Position numbers and translations under genes: made by a program. The notes under the pieces were generated by a model. It saw only the letters and a program-made list of their open reading frames with translations. It made no database searches and was not told where the DNA came from. 64,000 nucleotides of DNA from positions 74,239 to 138,238 of the forward strand of contig CAVSND010000030.1 of NCBI GenBank assembly GCA_963729215.1. The letters run 5' to 3'. Source of the DNA: an uncultured Acidobacteriota bacterium. GTDB lineage: Bacteria; Acidobacteriota; Vicinamibacteria; Vicinamibacterales; CAVVIG01. This document shows positions 3,308-64,000 of the stretch, piece after piece (the stretch's first letter is position 1; each line of letters starts with the position of its first letter).

Positions 3308-3341
3308 CTTCAGCCCCCAATCCTAGTCATGAAATGCTTTT

Positions 3342-3413
3342 CACGAAGACACGAAGATCACGAAGTTACCTGGAACCGCCCCCGCAGACTTCGTGACTTC
3401 GTGATGTCACGTG
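3342..3413. repeat. palindrome built from CACGAAGA(T) tandem units (3 units, 21-nt loop, about 2.5 inverted units)
   Basis: CACGAAGA CACGAAGAT CACGAAGT ..loop.. ACTTCGTG ACTTCGTGATG TCACGTG. It sits between the Vgb-like stop (3417) and the tannase start (3307). The same unit occurs at 44669..44735. Confidence 0.8.
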
Positions 3414-7039: not shown

Positions 7040-7064
7040 ACGTCCGCCTGAAGGCGGACGCTAC
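7013..7064. repeat. REP-like double-hairpin element (reverse orientation copy)
   Basis: GTAGCGGCCGGATTCAGCCGGCCG-TGAAC-GTCCGCCTGAAGGCGGACGCTAC. It overlaps the last codons and stop of the DUF1592 gene. Confidence 0.85.
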
Positions 7065-7076
7065 GAGAGCATTCTT

Positions 7077-8406: not shown

Positions 8407-10008
8407 ATGCGCGCGAAGTGGCTGCTCCACGCGGGGTTCGCACTTGCATTGGCGGTGCGTAGCGTCTGCCTTCAGGCAGACGGACAGGACGTCCGGCTGA
8501 AGCCGGACGCTACGGGTGTTCGTCTGGTGGAGGCCGTAAAAGCTGGCGACAAGGCCGCCATCACGACGCTGCTGAAGCAGAAGTCCGGCATCAATACGCC
8601 CGAACCGGACGGCACGACCGCGCTGCACTGGGCTGTTCGCCAGGACGATCTGGAGCTGACCGATCGCCTGCTGCGCGCCGGCGCTGACGTCAAGGCGGCG
8701 AATCGGTACGGGATCACACCGCTCTATCTGGCCAGCCTCAACGGCAACGCCGCCGTCATCGACAAACTGATCAAAGCCGGCGCAGACGCGAACGCCGCCG
8801 TGACTGAAGGCGAGACGGCGCTGATGACCGCTGCCCGCTCCGGCCACGTCGAGGCCGCCAGGGCACTGATCGCGCACGGGGCCGTGGTCGATGCCCGCGA
8901 GCAGTGGCGCGGCCAGACGGCGCTCATGTGGGCCGCGGCCGAGGGCCACGCGGACATGATCAAGGAGCTCGCCGCCCGCGGCGCAGACGTCAACGCGCGG
9001 TCAACCACGCAGCAGTGGGAACGCCAGGTGACCGCCGAGCCTCGCGAAAAATGGCTGCCGCCGGGCGGACTCACGCCGATGCTCTTCGCGAGCCGACAGG
9101 GATGCGTCGAGTGCGTGCGGGTGCTCGCTTCACTCGGCGCCGACGTGAACGCCACCGACCAGGACGGCATCAGCCCGATGATCTCGGCGATCATCAACGG
9201 GCATTTCGATGTCGCGGGCGCACTGCTCGAAAAGAACGCCGACCCCAACATTGCTGATGCGACGGGCCGGACGCCGCTGTATTCGGCCGTGGACCTGAAC
9301 ACCGTGCCCGACTCGAACCGTCCGGCGCCCCACGTCGTCGACAACCAGATGAGCGCGATGGAGCTGATCGCGTCCCTTCTCGACCACGGCGCGAACCCAA
9401 ACGCGCGGCTGAAGAAACAACAGCCGTACCGGACGAAGGTCGACCGCGGCAGCGACAGCATGCTCGGCGCCGGGACGACCCCGTTCCTGCGGGCGGCCAG
9501 GGCCGGCGACGCGCCGGCCATGCGACTCCTGCTCAAACGGGGCGCGGATCCGAAGATCGCCACGGGCTCTGACGTCCCGGTTGACGTCAGCCAGCCCGCG
9601 CGGCGCGCGCCCGGGGGCATCAACGCCCTGATGGCGGCGGCCGGACTGGGCTCGAAGGAAGAGGATACGGTCGGCCGCAGGAAGACCGAACGTCAGTCGA
9701 TCGAAGCGATCCAGGTATGCCTCGAAGCCGGCGTAGACATCAACGCCGTGGACGGCCGGGGTCAGACCGCCTTGTACGGCGCGGCGCTGCAGGGTTACGA
9801 CGAGGTCGTGAAATTTCTCCTCGCGCACGGCGCGAAACTCGACATCAAGGATCAGCGCGGTTTCACCGCGCTTGACGCCGCCGAAGGAAAGGCCGGCGGG
9901 TTCGGCTTCGGCGGCGGCTCCGCCAATCCGCACCCGGCCACCGCGAAGATCCTCCGGGACTCGATGAGCCCGCCCGCAACTCCGACGTCAACTCAGCAGG
10001 TCCGATAG
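8407..10008 (+). CDS. ankyrin-repeat protein, probably secreted
   Basis: Many G.TALH.A...G...V..LL..GADVNA-type repeats. The N-terminus MRAKWLLHAGFALALAV is signal-like. The start lies 2 nt after the DUF1552 stop. A REP copy lies inside codons 18-36. Confidence 0.85.
   Translation: MRAKWLLHAGFALALAVRSVCLQADGQDVRLKPDATGVRLVEAVKAGDKAAITTLLKQKSGINTPEPDGTTALHWAVRQDDLELTDRLLRAGADVKAANRYGITPLYLASLNGNAAVIDKLIKAGADANAAVTEGETALMTAARSGHVEAARALIAHGAVVDAREQWRGQTALMWAAAEGHADMIKELAARGADVNARSTTQQWERQVTAEPREKWLPPGGLTPMLFASRQGCVECVRVLASLGADVNATDQDGISPMISAIINGHFDVAGALLEKNADPNIADATGRTPLYSAVDLNTVPDSNRPAPHVVDNQMSAMELIASLLDHGANPNARLKKQQPYRTKVDRGSDSMLGAGTTPFLRAARAGDAPAMRLLLKRGADPKIATGSDVPVDVSQPARRAPGGINALMAAAGLGSKEEDTVGRRKTERQSIEAIQVCLEAGVDINAVDGRGQTALYGAALQGYDEVVKFLLAHGAKLDIKDQRGFTALDAAEGKAGGFGFGGGSANPHPATAKILRDSMSPPATPTSTQQVR
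8459..8513. repeat. REP-like double-hairpin element with compensatory stem changes
   Basis: GTAGCGTCTGCCTTCAGGCAGACG-GACAGGAC-GTCCGGCTGAAGCCGGACGCTAC. Both stems differ from the consensus by paired substitutions. Confidence 0.85.
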
Positions 10009-28803: not shown

Positions 28804-29302
28804 TCACTCGCGCAGTCTGTAGAACGTGATCATGTCGGTGCTCTTCGGCGGAGGAGCCCCGAGCTGGCGCAGCAGCGTTGTCACCTGGCCGCGGTGATAG
28901 CTTCCGTGATTGACCACGTGAGTGAGCATCTGAAAGAACGGTGACGCGCCCGTTGCGCCGCTGAGCAGCTTGTACTCGAACACGCGCGAGACGCCGGCCT
29001 CGCCAAGGCCTTCGACGAACCCGCGGACTTTCCCCTCGAGATCGACCCACGACCTGCGAATGGAATCAACATCGGGAAACGTGTCGTACGCGATCAGAGA
29101 CGAAGGGGATTCGCCAAGCCACCGCGTGTACCACACAAGGTCGGCGGCGTAGATGTGCGCCACGGTGTCGCGAACGGACTTGAAGCTGCTGTCCACCGAG
29201 ACGGGTGAACTGCTCCGGCGTCAGCGGCGTGACGGCTTCCAGGATGAGGTCGCGGGCCCAGTAGTGATAATCGAGCAGCGTGCGGAGATCCTTGAGGTCC
29301 AT
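28804..29302 (-). pseudogene. DinB-family (DinB_2/DUF664-like) protein, frame broken near 29200
   Basis: MDLKDLRTLLDYHYWARDLILEAVTPLTPEQFTR lies in one frame. VDSSFKSVRDTVAHIYAADLVWYTRW..HVVNHGSYHRGQVTTLLRQLG lies in the next (ORF 28804..29196). Confidence 0.75.
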
Positions 29303-29309
29303 GCCGCGG

Positions 29310-29315
29310 ATTATA
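29310..29315 (-). promoter_or_regulatory. perfect TATAAT box 7 nt upstream of DinB-like ATG 29302 (leaderless-type)
   Basis: Minus-strand sequence is ccgacTATAATccgcggcATG, with no SD. Confidence 0.45.
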
Positions 29316-29404
29316 GTCGGCAGCCGGGCGGCCCGTAGCTGATGATTCACGCTGATGATTGGTGATGCGAACTGCAGGTTTGGACGCTGACAAACGGCGG
29401 CGGC

Positions 29405-29430
29405 GGTGCCGGTCATCCCGACCGGCCACC
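29405..29430 (-). terminator. candidate hairpin terminator downstream of the HtrA-like gene
   Basis: Minus strand GGTGGCCGGTC-ggga-TGACCGGCACC, about 25 nt after stop 29454. It is followed only by a weak TTTGT tract. Confidence 0.3.
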
Positions 29431-29453
29431 GCCCACCGACCTCCGGCGGCCAG

Positions 29454-30974
29454 TTAAGCCGCCGGCTTCACCGTGAAGAACAGGCTGTGGCCCTCGCGCT
29501 CGACGAGCAGGAGCGCGGGACGGTCGGTCGTTTTGCGGACCGCCGCCCGAAGCTCGTCCACCGACTGCACCGGCTGCCGATTCACCTCGAGAATCACGTC
29601 GCCTTCCTGGAGTCCCGCGTCGGCGGCACGACTGTCAGGATTCACCGCGGTGATCACGAGCCCCTTCTGTCCGCGCTCGACGCCGATGCCCAGCGCTCCC
29701 TTGTCGGCGCTCGCCGGTTCGGCGCTGCGCGACGATCGCGCGCCGACTTCGGCTTCGTCCAGCTTGACCGAAATCGTTTTCTCGGCGCCATCGCGGACAA
29801 CCCCGACGGTGGCGTTCGATCCCGGCTGGGTCTCGGCCACATGGTTGCGGAGGCTGTTGAAGTCGGTCACGGCCTGGCCGTTGAACGACTCGATGACGTC
29901 ACCGCGCTTCAACCCTGCGCGGTCGGCCGCACTGTCGGGCGTGACCTTGCTGATGATGGCGCCGCCCACGTGTTTGAGGCCCATGCTGGCCGCGAGATCC
30001 GACGTCACCGGCTGCACTTCCACGCCCAGCTGCGAGCGGCGGACGCGGCCGTCCTTACGCAGGTCGTCCATGACGCGGCGCGCCATGTTCGACGGAATCG
30101 CGAATCCGATGCCGATGTTCGCGTCTACGGGCGACAGCATTTCGGCATTGATGCCGATGACCTCGCCCTTCGTGTTCACCAGCGCACCGCCCGAGTTGCC
30201 GTGATTGATCGGCGCATCGGTCTGCAGGAAATCCTGGTAGGTGCGGCCGCCGTCACCGTCGCCCGAACCGGTCGATCGGCCCTTGGCGCTGACAATCCCC
30301 ATCGTCACGGTCTGCCCCACGCCAAGGGGGTTGCCGATCGCGAGCACGAGATCGCCGACCTGTGCGTTGTCGGAATTCCCCAGCTGCGCGGTCTGGAGAC
30401 CCGTGGTGTTGACCTTGATAAGAGCCAGGTCGCTCGGCTTGTCGGTGCCGATGACCTTGGCTTCGAGGGTACGTCCGTCGGCGAGGTCGATGTGGATCGC
30501 ATCGGCACCGTCGACGACGTGGTTGTTGGTCAGGATGTAGCCGTCGCTCGTGACGACCACTCCGGAACCGAGGCCGCGCTGACGATAGCTGCGCGGAACG
30601 GCCCGCTGCCTTCGGCCGCGCGGGTTGTCGTCGCCGTCATCGCCGAAGAAGCGGCGGAAGAAGTCGTCGCCCTCGAACTGCGTCGGCGAGACCTTGGCCT
30701 TGCCTTCCACGCGGATGGTGACGACGGCGGGGGCGACAGCCTTGACCACGTCGGCGTACGAATCGCGTCCGCCGGGGATGCGCGACTGCGCGCTGGCTGA
30801 CTGCTGGCTGCCGGCGGCCGCGGACTGCTGACCGGCGACCGCCGAATGAACGCCGCTGACGACTGTTTGCGGGTTGGCCGAAGCTGCCAGGCTGTGCCAG
30901 GCCGCGCCGCTGATAAGGGCGGTGGCAGCCAGGACGGCGAGCCCCGTCCGGATGCTGAAATGTCGGATCTTCAT
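29454..30974 (-). CDS. Do/DegP/HtrA family periplasmic serine endopeptidase with two PDZ domains
   Basis: Signal peptide; TNNHVV, DLALIKV and GNSGGALVN catalytic triad motifs; two PDZ-like regions (GLKRGDVIESFNGQ, GLQEGDVILEVNRQ). Confidence 0.9.
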   Translation of the reverse strand: MKIRHFSIRTGLAVLAATALISGAAWHSLAASANPQTVVSGVHSAVAGQQSAAAGSQQSASAQSRIPGGRDSYADVVKAVAPAVVTIRVEGKAKVSPTQFEGDDFFRRFFGDDGDDNPRGRRQRAVPRSYRQRGLGSGVVVTSDGYILTNNHVVDGADAIHIDLADGRTLEAKVIGTDKPSDLALIKVNTTGLQTAQLGNSDNAQVGDLVLAIGNPLGVGQTVTMGIVSAKGRSTGSGDGDGGRTYQDFLQTDAPINHGNSGGALVNTKGEVIGINAEMLSPVDANIGIGFAIPSNMARRVMDDLRKDGRVRRSQLGVEVQPVTSDLAASMGLKHVGGAIISKVTPDSAADRAGLKRGDVIESFNGQAVTDFNSLRNHVAETQPGSNATVGVVRDGAEKTISVKLDEAEVGARSSRSAEPASADKGALGIGVERGQKGLVITAVNPDSRAADAGLQEGDVILEVNRQPVQSVDELRAAVRKTTDRPALLLVEREGHSLFFTVKPAA

Positions 30975-31070
30975 GGTGTCTGGGTCCTTTCCTTTCAGGA
31001 AATGCGCTTCTGAACCATTAGACGGCGCACCGCCTGTCAGGGACGTGGCTGGGACATTACAAAGAGGAAA

Positions 31071-31135
31071 GGTTCGAGAGGTTCGAGAGGTTCGAGGGGT
31101 TCGAGAGGTTCTAGGGGTTCGAGAGGTTCAGGTGG
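31071..31135. repeat. solitary tandem array of 7 GGTTCGAGA-type units
   Basis: GGTTCGAGA GGTTCGAGA GGTTCGAGGG GTTCGAGAG GTTCTAGGG GTTCGAGAG GTTCAGGTGG. It encodes the last residues (HLNLSNP*) and the stop of the histidine kinase. The unit is the same as at 63166-63752. Confidence 0.85.
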
Positions 31136-32445
31136 ACCGTGAATGTTGAGCCATGGCCGGGCTGGCTGCTGACGCTGACGGTGCCGTGGTGAGCCTCGAC
31201 GATGGCTTTCACGAGGCTGAGGCCGAGGCCGAGGCCGCGTTCGGCACGGCTCCGGTCACCGCGGAACAGGCGATCCCAGATCCGGGGCTGTTCATCGGCG
31301 GGAATGCCGAGACCGGTGTCGCTCACGCGCAGGACGGCGCGGTCGCCGTCCCGGCCGGCGGCGATTTCGACACGCCCGCCCGCGGAGGTGTACTCGATCG
31401 CGTTGTCCAGAAGGTTGGCGGCGACCTGCTCGAGACGCGTGCGATCGACGTTCACGCGCACGTCATCGGCGACGCTCGCGGCGAGCGCCACGCCTTTCGC
31501 GTCGGCGGTGTCGCGATAGAGGTCCGTCGCCCGCGCGACGATGTCCGCCAGCGCGACCGGCTCGCGCTTGAGCGGCATCGTGCCGCTTTCGGCCTCGGTG
31601 ATATCCATCAACGTCGTGAGGATGACGAGCACGCGATCGGCTTCCTCTACGCAGTCGGCCAGCGCTTCGCGGTAGCGGTCGAGGTCGGGCGGGGCGGCCA
31701 GCGCCAGCTCCGCCGATGCGCGGAGGCGGGTCATGGGCGTGCGCAAGTCGTGCGACACGTTGTCGAGCGCGCCGCGCATGCCGTCAACGAGCCCTTCGAT
31801 CTTGTCCAGCATCGCGTTGAAGAGTCCGGACAACTCGTCGATCGCGTCGCGGCGCTCGGCGAGCGGCACGCGGGCGTCGGTCTGGCCCGTCGTGATGATC
31901 CGCTTGACGGCGTCGATGAGCTGGCGGATGGGTTTGAGCGCCGTTTGCGTCGCGAGCGCGCCTCCCGTCAGCGCCACGAGCAGGATCGACAGCGTGACGA
32001 GACCGAGGGCGGCTCGGAACCTGGCGAGCAGGTCATCGCGCGCTTCGGTGCTCTTCCCTACCTGTACGAGCGTGCCGTCGGCCAGCCGTATCGATCCGGT
32101 TTCGAGGGACGCCAGATCCCATCCCTGCGGCTGACTCAGGACAACAGCTTCGGCGCCGCGATCCACCACGCGCACGAACAGCCGTTCGGGAGCGGTTTGC
32201 TGCTCCGCCTGCACCGTCGCGGCGAGGGCGTCGAGTCCGCCGCGATCGTACGCGGTCGCGTAGAGGCCGAGCTTGCTGTCGATCAGCTGGCGATCGCGCT
32301 GAGCGAGGGAGGCCGACGCGAGAAGATACGTCAGCGTCACGATCGCCATCGACCCGGCAACGAACAACGACGCGTACCACACGCCGATGCGCAGCCCGTA
32401 CACGAGCGGACGCGCGTCGCGCTCAGGCCCTGAGGACATATCCAA
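31111..32445 (-). CDS. two-component sensor histidine kinase (2 TM, HAMP, HisKA, HATPase_c)
   Basis: SHDLRTPMTRL H-box, LLDNAIEYT N-box, DTGLGIP, GLGLGLSLV G-boxes. Confidence 0.85.
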   Translation of the reverse strand: MDMSSGPERDARPLVYGLRIGVWYASLFVAGSMAIVTLTYLLASASLAQRDRQLIDSKLGLYATAYDRGGLDALAATVQAEQQTAPERLFVRVVDRGAEAVVLSQPQGWDLASLETGSIRLADGTLVQVGKSTEARDDLLARFRAALGLVTLSILLVALTGGALATQTALKPIRQLIDAVKRIITTGQTDARVPLAERRDAIDELSGLFNAMLDKIEGLVDGMRGALDNVSHDLRTPMTRLRASAELALAAPPDLDRYREALADCVEEADRVLVILTTLMDITEAESGTMPLKREPVALADIVARATDLYRDTADAKGVALAASVADDVRVNVDRTRLEQVAANLLDNAIEYTSAGGRVEIAAGRDGDRAVLRVSDTGLGIPADEQPRIWDRLFRGDRSRAERGLGLGLSLVKAIVEAHHGTVSVSSQPGHGSTFTVHLNLSNP

Positions 32446-33095
32446 CCCCGCGGACGGTGTGAATGAGCTTGGTCTCGAACGGCCGATCGACCTTGTCCCG
32501 CAAGCGGCTGACGAGCACGTCCACGATATTGGTTTGCGGGTCGAAGTTGTACTCCCACACGTGCGACAGGATCATCGTCTTCGAGACGACTTTGCCGGTA
32601 TTGCGCATCAGGTATTCGAGCAGCGCGAACTCGCGCGGGCGCAGATCGACCTGGGTTCCCCCGCGCGACACCCGGCGCGACAGCAGGTCGAGCACGAGAT
32701 CTTCGACCGTGAGCGTCGTGGGTTCCGGCGTGCGGGATGCGCGGCGGACCAGCGCCTGCACGCGCGCCAGCAGTTCCGCGAACGCGAATGGCTTGGTCAG
32801 GTAGTCGTCGCCGCCCGCCTGCAGGCCGCGTACGCGATCGTCCACCGTTTGCCGTGCGCTCAGAATCAACACGGGCGTCATCACGCCTTTCCGCCTCAAC
32901 TCCTCGATGACCGACAGCCCGTCGCGCCTGGGCAGCATGACATCCACGACCGCGACGTCGTAGGCCTGATCGAGCGCCGCCGCCAGCCCCTCGGCGCCGT
33001 CGGACACACGATCGACCGCAAACCCGGCCTCGCGCAGCCCACGCGCCACGAACTCCGCGATCGTGTCGTCGTCTTCGATGAGCAGCGACGTGCAC
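32423..33095 (-). CDS. OmpR-family response regulator (start region frame-ambiguous)
   Basis: LLIEDDDTIAEFVARGL..VDVMLPRRDG..LILSAR..GGDDYLTKPF plus a winged-helix C-domain (LVSRLRDKVD..IHTVRGVGYVL). AGGAGG-11 nt-GTG 33095 is 1 nt out of frame with the body, so one extra nt at about 33088 is implied. Confidence 0.8.
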
Positions 33096-33110
33096 GTTCG
33101 TCGAGTCCTC

Positions 33111-34209
<1,099 letters not shown>

Positions 34210-42548: not shown

Positions 42549-42594
42549 GTAGCGTCCGCCTTCAGGCGGACGTCCGGCTGAAGCCGGACGCTAC
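42549..42594. repeat. REP-like double-hairpin element (no spacer)
   Basis: GTAGCGTCCGCCTTCAGGCGGAC-GTCCGGCTGAAGCCGGACGCTAC, between convergent genes. Confidence 0.9.
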
Positions 42595-44643: not shown

Positions 44644-44668
44644 AGTCCTGCGCAGCTAGAACAATGAA

Positions 44669-44735
44669 CCACGAAGATCACGAAGGTCACGAAGAAGGCT
44701 TAACCTGTAGAGAGAACTTCGTGATCTTCGTGATT
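44669..44735. repeat. palindrome built from CACGAAGAT tandem units (16-bp perfect stem)
   Basis: CACGAAGATCACGAAG (44670-85) pairs with CTTCGTGATCTTCGTG (44717-32). It is followed by the tandem CTGCTCTCGA/CTGCTCTCGC (44742-61). It lies between xth and pepT. Confidence 0.85.
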
Positions 44736-44770
44736 CGAGGATCTGCTCTCGACTGCTCTCGCAACCTGTC

Positions 44771-51240: not shown

Positions 51241-51390
51241 CCGTGGAGAACGCCGGACCCGTGGAGAACGCAGAGGAGGGTCATAACGCAGAGATCGCAG
51301 AGATCGCCGAGAAGAGTACTTTGGAAAGTCAGTCTTTCTCTGCGATCTCCGCGATCTCTGCGTTTGAGAATGTCTCCGCGTTCTCAAAAG
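51241..51390. repeat. about 150-nt imperfect palindrome built from GCAGAGATC and GGAGAACGC units
   Basis: Inner arms GCAGAGATCGCAGAGATCGCCGAGAAGAG (51288-316) and TCTTTCTCTGCGATCTCCGCGATCTCTGC (51333-61) match at about 25/29. The centre is ACTTTGGAAAGT. Outer arms are TGGAGAACGCCGGAC and GTCTCCGCGTTCTCA. Confidence 0.85.
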
Positions 51391-63165: not shown

Positions 63166-63230
63166 TTCGAGGGTTCGAGAGGTTCGAGGGGTTCGAGAGG
63201 TTCGAGAGGTTCAAGAGGTTCCGGAGATTC
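63166..63230. repeat. left inverted arm of GGTTCGAGA tandem units
   Basis: TTCGAGG GTTCGAGAG GTTCGAGGG GTTCGAGAG GTTCGAGAG GTTCAAGAG GTTCCGGAG ATTC. It starts 1 nt after the dedA stop. Confidence 0.9.
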
Positions 63231-63252
63231 GTCGGAGCGGCGGGCATGCTTT

Positions 63253-63684
63253 GTGCTCCCACGAACCTCCGTGGCTGGCGTGTCGCGCTACGAAGACCTT
63301 GTCGCATGGCACCTTGCGCACGAATTGCAGCGGGAGGTGTTTGCACTGACTGCAACAGGGCCGGCGTCGAGGGATTTCAGATTTCGCGATCAGATTCGCG
63401 ACTCGTCGTCATCCGTCACACGCAACATCGCGGAGGGGTTTGGCCGGTACCGGCCGGGCGAGTTCGCCAGGTTTCTCGACATCGCCAGAGGGTCGCTGAC
63501 CGAAACCCACAACAGCCTGCGCGACGGTCACGACCGTGGTTACTTCACAGCGTTCGACACCGACCGGATGCAACTTCTCGCGGGACGAGCGGCGAAGGCC
63601 ATCACCGGTCTGATCCGCTACCTGCGGACCTGCGCGCGTAAAAATACCGCCGCTCCGTCTCCGCGAATACCGCGAACCTCTTGA
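63253..63684 (+). CDS. four-helix-bundle protein (23S rRNA intervening-sequence protein / S23p family, TIGR02436-like)
   Basis: SRYEDLVAWHLAHELQREVFALT...FRFRDQIRDSSSSVTRNIAEGFGRYRPGEFARFLDIARGSLTETHNSL. The true start is probably GTG 63271 or 63280. The stop TGA lies inside the right arm. Confidence 0.8.
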   Translation: MLPRTSVAGVSRYEDLVAWHLAHELQREVFALTATGPASRDFRFRDQIRDSSSSVTRNIAEGFGRYRPGEFARFLDIARGSLTETHNSLRDGHDRGYFTAFDTDRMQLLAGRAAKAITGLIRYLRTCARKNTAAPSPRIPRTS

Positions 63685-63752
63685 GCCCTGAACCTCTCGA
63701 ACCTCTCGAACCCCTCGAACCTCTCGAACCCCTCGAACCCTCGAACCTCTAG
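63674..63752. repeat. right inverted arm (GAACCTCTC/GAACCCCTC units), reverse complement of 63166-63230
   Basis: GAACCTCTTGAGCCCTGAACCTCTCGAACCTCTCGAACCCCTCGAACCTCTCGAACCCCTCGAACCCTCGAACCTCTAG. It contains the stop codons of the 4HB gene and of cutA. Confidence 0.9.
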
Positions 63753-64000
63753 GTCCCCGTTTCCCGTCGCACCCAATCGAGATACGCGTCGCTCCCGCCT
63801 TCGATCGGCACGATGACGAACTCGGGCAGTTCGTAAGAGTGGAGGGATTTGATCCGCGCCTCGAGGGCGGGCACGCGGTCACGCGTGGTCTTGATGATGA
63901 GCTGTCGTTCGGCTTCGCGCTCGAGCTCGCCCTTCCAGCGATAGATCGACGTCATCGGTCCGTGGATATTCACACAGGCCGCGAGGCGTTCCTCGACCAG
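63749..64000 (-). CDS. cutA: divalent-cation tolerance protein CutA, 5' end outside window
   Basis: ..VNIHGPMTSIYRWKGELEREAERQLIIKTT...YELPEFVIVPIEGGS..YL.WV. The frame is open to the window edge. Confidence 0.8.
   Translation of the reverse strand: MVEERLAACVNIHGPMTSIYRWKGELEREAERQLIIKTTRDRVPALEARIKSLHSYELPEFVIVPIEGGSDAYLDWVRRETGT

Follow-up and report, generated by a model that had tools for sequence, protein, structure and literature searches.

Near the middle of the 64,000-nt stretch of DNA analyzed here (hereafter, the window), the gene of a sensor histidine kinase ends inside an array of 9-nt units, and the same unit builds the arms of a cassette 32 kb away. We ask how the array came to lie at the end of this gene, whether it is what remains of such a cassette, and whether it serves the genes between which it stands. 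We think it probable that the array is a hypervariable VNTR whose unit is 9 nt long, that it belongs to a family of 7- and 9-nt repeats spread over the genome, and that the tail it gives to the kinase is a by-product. By itself, such an array would be of little importance; its genomic context is more useful.

The array and the end of the kinase gene

The array and the genes around it are as follows (coordinates are those of the window):

31071-31133, minus strand: solitary tandem array of 7 units of 9 nt each (Tandem Repeats Finder, pattern searches and the sequence itself)
31107-31115, minus strand: variant unit GGTTCTAGG (sense CCTAGAACC), whose CTAG gives the kinase its TAG stop at 31111-31113
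31114-31134, minus strand: last seven kinase codons, HLNLSNP, of which NLSNP is repeat-derived and lies past HATPase_c
31111-32445, minus strand: sensor histidine kinase (HAMP, HisKA, HATPase_c), CpxA/MprB-like by Pfam and PDB matches
32423-33094, minus strand: OmpR/PhoB-type response regulator (Response_reg, Trans_reg_C; Pfam)
29454-30974, minus strand: HtrA/DegP-type serine protease (trypsin-like and two PDZ domains; Pfam)

All genes are on the minus strand, in the order regulator, kinase, array, htrA, and the order regulator-kinase-htrA is conserved among relatives. This arrangement recalls envelope-stress systems such as CpxRA-DegP and MprAB-PepD. The mechanical open reading frame (ORF) of the regulator extends to 33238; because ortholog gene calls are 223 aa long, we place its start near 33094. 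The htrA start codon is the ATG at 30972-30974, with a Shine-Dalgarno sequence (GAAAGGAAAGGA) at 30985-30996.

Direct reading confirms the seven tandem units reported in the initial annotation, six of them good and one degenerate, in the order GGTTCGAGA, GGTTCGAGA, GGTTCGAGG, GGTTCGAGA, GGTTCTAGG, GGTTCGAGA and GGTTCAGGT (the degenerate one) at 31071-31133. On the kinase sense strand, the array reads (TCTCGAACC/CCCTCGAACC)n and is C-rich and G-poor. Tandem Repeats Finder delimits it at 31070-31129 (period 9, 6.7 copies, 88% matches, unit AGGTTCGAG). A probe of two units, 18 nt long, has 17 matches in the 64-kb window against 0.1 expected, all of them confined to 31071-31133 (+), 63172-63225 (+) and 63686-63739 (-), and a periodic GAACC-N4 probe finds the same three places with 0 expected. 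Head-to-tail copies of a short unit in such excess over chance, as found at the kinase-htrA site, are what defines a long-unit simple sequence repeat (SSR) or VNTR. The identity of the unit with that of the arms 32 kb away (63166-63231 and 63673-63750) was likewise borne out, and the reported lack of an inverted partner within 150 nt can be extended: a search of the window found no inverted copy within 800 nt, the nearest being 32 kb away. An Rfam scan of 29000-33500 on both strands, with E-values up to 1, gave no match.

How much of the kinase does the array encode? The minus-strand ORF at 31111-32445 is 444 aa long and ends in ...GSTFTVHLNLSNP, and its translation agrees with the earlier statement that the array supplies HLNLSNP and the TAG stop. 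Pfam places HATPase_c at residues 334-442 of the 444, and alignments to solved kinase structures (including CpxA and MprB) mostly stop at ...TFTVHL, so that it is the array that supplies NLSNP and the stop codon. The kinase has more than 6000 homologues, the nearest of which belong to Vicinamibacterales, phylum Acidobacteriota. When the C-termini of 120 homologues are compared, as the initial annotation had proposed, conservation runs through G-S-T-F-x-V-x-L and homology ends at the position of ...TFTVHL. Beyond it the tails diverge, and they look like translated repeats (HLNLSNP, HLNLSNPSNPSNL, HLNPLNL, SLPPEP, SLPPEPRTQNPEP, VNLSYL). The single ortholog with an HLNLSNP tail that was checked at the DNA level, L148 (L-numbers are labels of the compared loci or contigs), has the repeat as well, rather than the tail without it. 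The array thus contributes about five residues and the stop codon, all past the last structural element of the kinase. That a repeat shapes the 3' end of the gene is correct, but to call the gene "remodelled" overstates the functional consequence, since all that changes in the protein is a few residues past its last domain.

The 9-nt unit equals three codons and is stop-free in every frame, so an adjoining ORF continues into the array as far as a variant unit with a stop codon. Variant units bearing CTAG also terminate the kinase ORF in L001, L002, L010, L013, L019 and L148. A stop-free 9-nt repeat may in this way append variable residues to a protein without harm.

CTAG is a palindrome, and units that bear it give TAG to genes entering arrays in either direction, namely those of the kinase and CutA and, in L110, a convergent gene. 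The sites are 31107-31115 and, for CutA at the right cassette arm, 63745-63753 in the window, about 6680 in L110, and 2040-2095 in L148.

The kinase-htrA junction in related lineages

The junction was compared in 84 orthologous loci of the order Vicinamibacterales, namely one exact protein look-up, 80 metagenome contigs and further chosen orthologs. L001 and L002 have flanks that are 97.5-98.4% identical to those of the window and, over 1300 nt, free of indels on the kinase side (L002) and downstream (L001 and L002). Within these constant flanks, the arrays of the window, L001 and L002 hold 7, 6 and 7 units in different order, and the place of the TAG-bearing unit differs among the three. L148 has this unit amplified to six copies; in L003 (87% identical), the array has decayed and the repeat is lost, the length being similar. 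Differences in copy number and unit composition between constant flanks are characteristic of a VNTR, and they are found here in metagenome assemblies, which can mis-assemble tandem repeats and so affect the copy numbers. Across these assemblies, unit sequence, unit length and copy number are shown to turn over fast even where the flanks are 98% identical; judged by them, the array behaves as a VNTR shaped by the gain and loss of whole units, for which we infer slipped-strand mispairing or unequal exchange as the mechanism. A junction prone to slippage or recombination could serve for strain typing of uncultured soil Acidobacteria.

The kinase tail varies along with the array and is 7, 13 or 16 residues long among relatives whose flanks are 97.5-98.4% identical. 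Such differences between near-identical relatives might suggest a contingency (phase-variation) locus that switches kinase activity through the C-terminus. We find this scarcely credible: the unit is a multiple of three, so that a change in copy number keeps the frame; the variable residues lie past the last structural element of the ATPase domain; and orthologs that carry heptamers stop before most of the array. The spacing of the promoter does not shift either, as the array is upstream of the whole operator-promoter element described below, whose internal spacing is fixed.

Among the 84 loci, 16 have at least three sense-oriented GAACC-core units exactly at the kinase-htrA slot, and all 16 arrays have the same orientation. 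The units are 7, 8 or 9 nt long across orthologs, and the copy number ranges from 0 to ~11:

GAACCTCTC: window, L001, L002, L010
CCCTAGAAC: amplified in L148
GAACCCT: L004, L151
GAACCGT and GAACCTTT: L005-L007
GGAACCT: L011
mixed units: L013, L019, L149

Every ortholog array keeps the GAACC core and closes with GAACCTTTC; this is also the 5' edge of a conserved element, one that relatives without arrays have too. Some array-less outgroup loci carry GAACCTTTCA at the same edge. GAACC arrays are restricted to one clade of the kinase tree. The array is shown to be old and local, long-lived at the kinase-htrA site across that clade. Other clades have CCCACCYGA nonamers, other short repeats or GTAG-type REP hairpins at the same junction. 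The GTAG-type REPs (in L025, L041, L033 and L028) indicate that the junction accepts several kinds of repeat. Within the window, GTAG-tagged REP-like palindromes (GTAGCGTCCGCCTTCAGGCGGAC) occur at 7041-7065, 8458-8482 and 42549-42594.

The minimal state of the junction is seen in L008, L014, L021 and L027, which have just 13 nt (AACCTTTCCTATT) between the kinase domain and the box described below; their kinases end in ...VNLSYL*, with the stop inside TGTAAT. Relatives without an array read AACCTTTCCTATTTGTAA, with a kinase end ...NLSYL*, and in several array-less lineages the kinase stop is the TAA of TGTAAT, so that the end of the gene overlaps the operator-like element. The array is likely to have been seeded on the CCTTTC motif at the edge of this element. 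The element itself has three parts:

31062-31075, minus strand: GAACCTTTCCTCTT, the last array unit merging into the conserved CCTTTC (consensus of 60 distinct orthologous sequences)
31045-31061, minus strand: direct-repeat box TGTAAT-N5-(T/G)G(T/C)MAC with an 11-bp period (ortholog scan, match in the window)
31017-31025, minus strand: conserved CCGTCTAAT, candidate -10 region of htrA (fixed spacing and near-invariance)

Together, CCTTTC..TGTAAT-N5-TGTMAC-N19-CCGTCTAAT at 31017-31075 is strongly conserved and non-coding. The box is present in 66 of the 81 sequences scanned (80 orthologous loci with a located kinase end and the window), and in 64 of these 66, CCGTCTAA follows at a fixed distance of 19 nt. 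The consensus of the 60 distinct sequences is aaCCTttCa.c..TGTAATg.tcc.Gt.ACg.CccgG.aAGgc...g..cCGTCtAAt, and downstream of the element the orthologs have a conserved Shine-Dalgarno sequence, GAAAGGAC, followed by the htrA start codon. Regulators of the OmpR/PhoB family bind direct repeats with a period of ~10-11 bp. Because the 11-bp direct repeat is of this kind and is conserved together with the regulator, we read the element as a putative htrA operator and promoter, and the TGTAAT-N5-TGTMAC box as a probable binding site of the response regulator. A scan of 30700-31400 for strict sigma-70 consensus promoters found nothing, which leaves CCGTCTAAT a candidate -10 region. No convincing second TGTAAT box was found upstream of the regulator gene. 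The operator-like element that the comparison exposes would tie a CpxRA/MprAB-like two-component system to htrA in Vicinamibacterales.

Two further ideas about this element were dropped. ECF-sigma and sigma-54 readings, assessed by eye, do not fit its spacings. The CCTTTC at the array edge is complementary to the GAAAGG of the htrA Shine-Dalgarno sequence (15 nt, 80%), and the proposed pairing has no compensatory changes across orthologs.

The array appears to fill the sole unconstrained slot between the codons for ...TFTVHL and the htrA operator-like element. Its position directly upstream of that element, and the GAACC core kept in all array variants of the clade, could mean that the units are iterated sites for a DNA-binding protein (an OmpR-type regulator or another factor) that tunes the htrA promoter. 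This seems to us very improbable. The period is 9 nt here and 7, 8 or 9 nt in orthologs rather than the 10-11 nt of OmpR/PhoB sites, the units are unconserved, their number runs from none to about eleven, and the array is decayed in L003 and absent in several orthologs; the adjoining TGTAAT-N5-TGTMAC box, on the other hand, hardly varies, and its 11-bp period is the expected one. Descent from a single seed also accounts for the shared GAACC core.

The 5' coding region of htrA has repeats of its own. In several relatives, a heptamer array (CAGTCAG/CAGTCGG, 5-11 copies) lies past the signal peptide, at 11567-11644 in L152, 2376 in L004, 4090 in L006, 1611 in L007 and 2291 in L148; the equivalent site of the window (~30780-30850) has just a degenerate 24-nt repeat at 30799-30844. 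The htrA gene call of L152 begins only past its heptamer array, which could be a frame-shifting (on/off) repeat. Farther downstream in the window, a 35-nt inverted repeat (28331-28365/28496-28530, 91% complementary) has 130 nt between its arms and lies in a region with no clear gene call.

Cassette arms and the origin of the array

The same-unit arms 32 kb away enclose a gene, and comparable cassettes were found in other contigs:

63166-63231, plus strand, and 63673-63750, minus strand: inverted same-unit arms flanking the 23S_rRNA_IVP (four-helix-bundle) gene
63253-63684, plus strand: 23S_rRNA_IVP gene (Pfam PF05635, E 3e-25)
63166-63750: the whole PF05635 cassette of the window
4494-5281 in L122; 2669-3032 and 6347-6688 in L110; 6120-6800 in L100; 540-1210 in L075; 14306-14899 in L152: further PF05635 cassettes

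All seven PF05635 (23S rRNA IVS-protein) genes found lie between inverted tandem arrays, and the units of these arrays differ (GGTTCGAGA, a 25-mer, GGTGGGCCG/CCCACCTGA, the heptamer CAGTCAG). The arms could form duplexes of 60-100 bp around the gene. Arrays like the one at the kinase site do, in other words, serve as cassette arms.

The initial annotation suggested a half-site left after the loss of a cassette, or perhaps a seed array. More broadly, the array might be a solo arm, the remnant of either an inverted-array hairpin or a four-helix-bundle (23S rRNA IVS-protein) cassette, much as a REP singlet derives from a REPIN doublet. It shares its unit with the cassette arms at 63166-63750, the same units in related genomes often form inverted pairs directly past stop codons, inverted tandem arrays flank every one of the seven four-helix-bundle genes, and decayed cassettes with one good arm exist (L110). 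Even so, the orthologous loci make such an origin very improbable. An antisense (GGTTC) array was found in none of the 84 loci between -800 and +900 nt of the kinase end, and none of them has a full cassette at this position. Neither a PF05635 gene nor a remnant of one was detected at the junction by tblastn or with a profile derived from four seeds. These searches found PF05635 genes solely at other positions, namely at 63253 in the window, in L075, L100, L110 and L122, and in L152, where the gene is 3 kb downstream and has arms of a different unit. The arrays of the orthologs have a single orientation and all end in the conserved GAACCTTTC. Moreover, the cassette and hairpin arms of L152 use CAGTCGG, whereas its kinase site keeps the GAACC unit; this mismatch argues for local descent of the array at the kinase site and against its having been copied from the arms.

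Under the preferred reading, a local VNTR, the array would have been seeded on GAACCTTTC and would then gain and lose whole units through slipped-strand mispairing or unequal recombination, without deriving from a four-helix-bundle cassette or a hairpin. The kinase ORF would read into the stop-free array until a CTAG-bearing variant unit terminates it, and the resulting tail would be short, variable and probably functionless. One point speaks against a purely local origin: the 9-nt unit is shared with the arms 32 kb away and, in related genomes, with several loci. The shared unit may stem from spread between loci or from gene conversion.

Strand bias, described systems and a shared period

If the kinase tail is a by-product, the transcript past the kinase stop may still matter. 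On the sense strand, the 78 nt at 31058-31135 contain 34 C and 8 G (C/G 4.25) and form the most skewed window of this size in the 64 kb, where 0.003% of 78-nt windows reach this value. RNA folding of the kinase-htrA spacer gave no structure beyond that of shuffled controls (z -0.04), the array being unpaired in the centroid, and a scan for intrinsic terminators in 30700-31400 found none between kinase and htrA. The bias extends to other inserts at the junction: C exceeds G in 49 of 51 distinct insert sequences (median skew -0.25), unrelated repeat families included, although the inserts come from related lineages and fall, by eye, into some 8 independent C-rich families against 2 G-rich ones. 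In 28 other co-directional intergenic regions, the median skew is -0.02.

Published criteria for rut sites are at least 70-80 nt of ribosome-free, unstructured RNA in which C exceeds G (PMC6407284), and in length, composition and low predicted structure the array tract corresponds to them. The array may, then, be kept as a rut-like, Rho-loading tract past the kinase stop. Rho would end read-through from the regulator and kinase genes before or within the htrA promoter region, leaving htrA to its own regulator-controlled promoter, and a tandem repeat would be an easy evolutionary route to build, or rebuild, such a tract. The extreme skew, the predicted lack of structure, the missing terminator, the bias of the inserts relative to the near-zero skew elsewhere, and the fit to the published criteria all speak for this. 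Against it, several relatives are free of inserts (the 13-nt minimal state) and yet keep the operon, translation covers the first 24 nt of the array, the family has solitary arrays elsewhere in related genomes that point either way with respect to the upstream gene, and the 49 C-rich inserts are not 49 independent events. We regard a Rho-loading role as plausible but secondary, to be held tentatively. If true, repeat tracts would be a cheap way to build Rho-loading sites. The persistence of the array across the clade, together with the near-universal C-over-G bias of unrelated inserts, suggests some constraint on the tract, and the word "functionless" may be wrong.

Several described systems resemble the array in part. 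The array is like rut sites in being some 70 nt of C-rich, G-poor RNA, predicted to be unstructured, past a stop codon, although we know of no natural rut sites that consist of perfect tandem repeats. Closer in form are the GGGNATC heptamers of Xanthomonas and Nostoc, which recur between the same gene pairs in related species and there differ widely in both length and sequence (Rehm et al. 2015, PMC4692102). These and the cyanobacterial STRR heptamers likewise consist of short head-to-tail units with many copies per genome, concentrated in non-coding DNA, tens of bases from stop or start codons and without an established function. In contrast to them, the unit here is 9 nt long, or 7 nt in sister lineages, and with its GAACC core is not rich in G-tracts, so that no quadruplex is expected; further, a coding sequence ends within the kinase-htrA copy, which borders directly on a conserved operator-like element. 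The TAACTGA heptamers of Beggiatoaceae, Cyanobacteria and Bacteroidetes are intergenic direct repeats near gene boundaries, distributed patchily over distant phyla with no evident transfer mechanism (MacGregor 2015, PMC4679880). The distribution of (GGTTCGAGR)n is similarly patchy (Acidobacteriota, rumen Bacteroidales, Planctomycetota and others). Sets of TAACTGA mostly comprise 2-6 copies just upstream of start codons, with a proposed translational role (PMC4679880), whereas the array at the kinase site is ~95-160 nt upstream of the htrA ATG and upstream of the putative promoter.

REP and REPIN elements, including the GTAG-tagged ones (PMC3733652), are also multi-copy, extragenic and often paired as hairpins past stop codons, their singlets being decayed doublets, and GTAG-type REPs are present both in the window and, elsewhere, at the kinase-htrA junction. 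They are single imperfect palindromes, however, rather than a tandem array, and neither a partner element nor a RAYT-type transposase was seen at the kinase-htrA array. The layout of 23S rRNA intervening-sequence elements, with a PF05635 ORF between inverted repeats, is matched by the same-unit arms 32 kb away; the kinase-htrA array differs in having no ORF and no second arm and in lying outside an rRNA gene. A literature search returned no direct description of this repeat sequence, of Vicinamibacter tandem repeats or of four-helix-bundle cassettes. Going by sequence features, the closest described class is that of abundant intergenic long-unit simple repeats, whose tested features the array has; it lacks, on the same basis, those that define a cassette remnant, a regulator operator, a phase-variation switch or an Rfam family.

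How far does the family reach? A scan for (GGTTCGAGR)x3 in a 596-Gb collection, with one genome per species, returned 66 loci, and several genome bins of Acidobacteriota/Vicinamibacterales have 4-6 each. In those bins, the arrays usually begin 0-8 nt past a stop codon; arrays of the GGTTCGAGR type are often inverted pairs (potential long hairpins), and solitary ones, in both orientations, are common too. Since the window contains three arrays of this unit and related bins have 4-6 loci each, the repeat has the character of a multi-copy, non-coding family at gene ends. Coding status was assigned with a gene finder based on codon-position GC, which misses some genes, and the longest-ORF test is uninformative at high GC; matches in Actinobacteria resemble coding tripeptide repeats.

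Rumen Bacteroidales bins have several intergenic (GGTTCGAGR)n loci per genome, often in the C-rich orientation just upstream of a start codon, and single loci are found in Planctomycetota, Gemmatimonadota, an ANME-1 archaeon and Limnohabitans (the cross-phylum loci include L095, L104, L107, L116, L119, L137, L142, L146 and L147). No four-helix-bundle gene was detectable near the matches outside Acidobacteriota. We do not claim common descent for the cross-phylum matches: the 596-Gb collection must hold many nonamer arrays, and independent expansions are possible.

Arrays of unrelated sequence within one contig tend to share a period of 7 or 9 nt. Pairs with the same period number 75 and those with different periods 8 (permutation p ~1.5e-4, which overstates the evidence, as hairpin arms and related lineages are non-independent). 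All nine arrays of L152 have 7-nt units, and the window has 9-nt units in 6 of its 8 arrays of period 7-10 nt (6 of 10 for periods 5-11). In 9 of 11 lineages, the array at the kinase site has the same period as its contig. Contigs with 7-mers are L152, L004, L006, L011, L015 and L024, and those with 9-mers are L042, L063, L105, L110 and L122. Arrays with 7- or 9-nt units abound in the genomes of Vicinamibacterales, and their period is apparently contig-specific. A preferred unit length tied to the DNA polymerase is a published idea cited in PMC4692102.

The shared contig period, the inverted arrays around every PF05635 gene found and the recurrent, strand-biased solitary arrays could be combined in another way: some system that generates repeats at the level of the genome would have the array as one of its products, and as its seed or landing pad, perhaps also selected as a modular Rho-loading tract. 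We consider this rather unlikely as an account of the kinase site, for which a local VNTR remains our preferred explanation.

Other nonamer arrays of the window form hairpins, at 3341-3404, 44668-44736 and 51285-51364, whose arms are tandem 8-9-mers (CACGAAGAT or CGCAGAGAT); each lies ~15-30 nt past a stop codon and has no U-tract.
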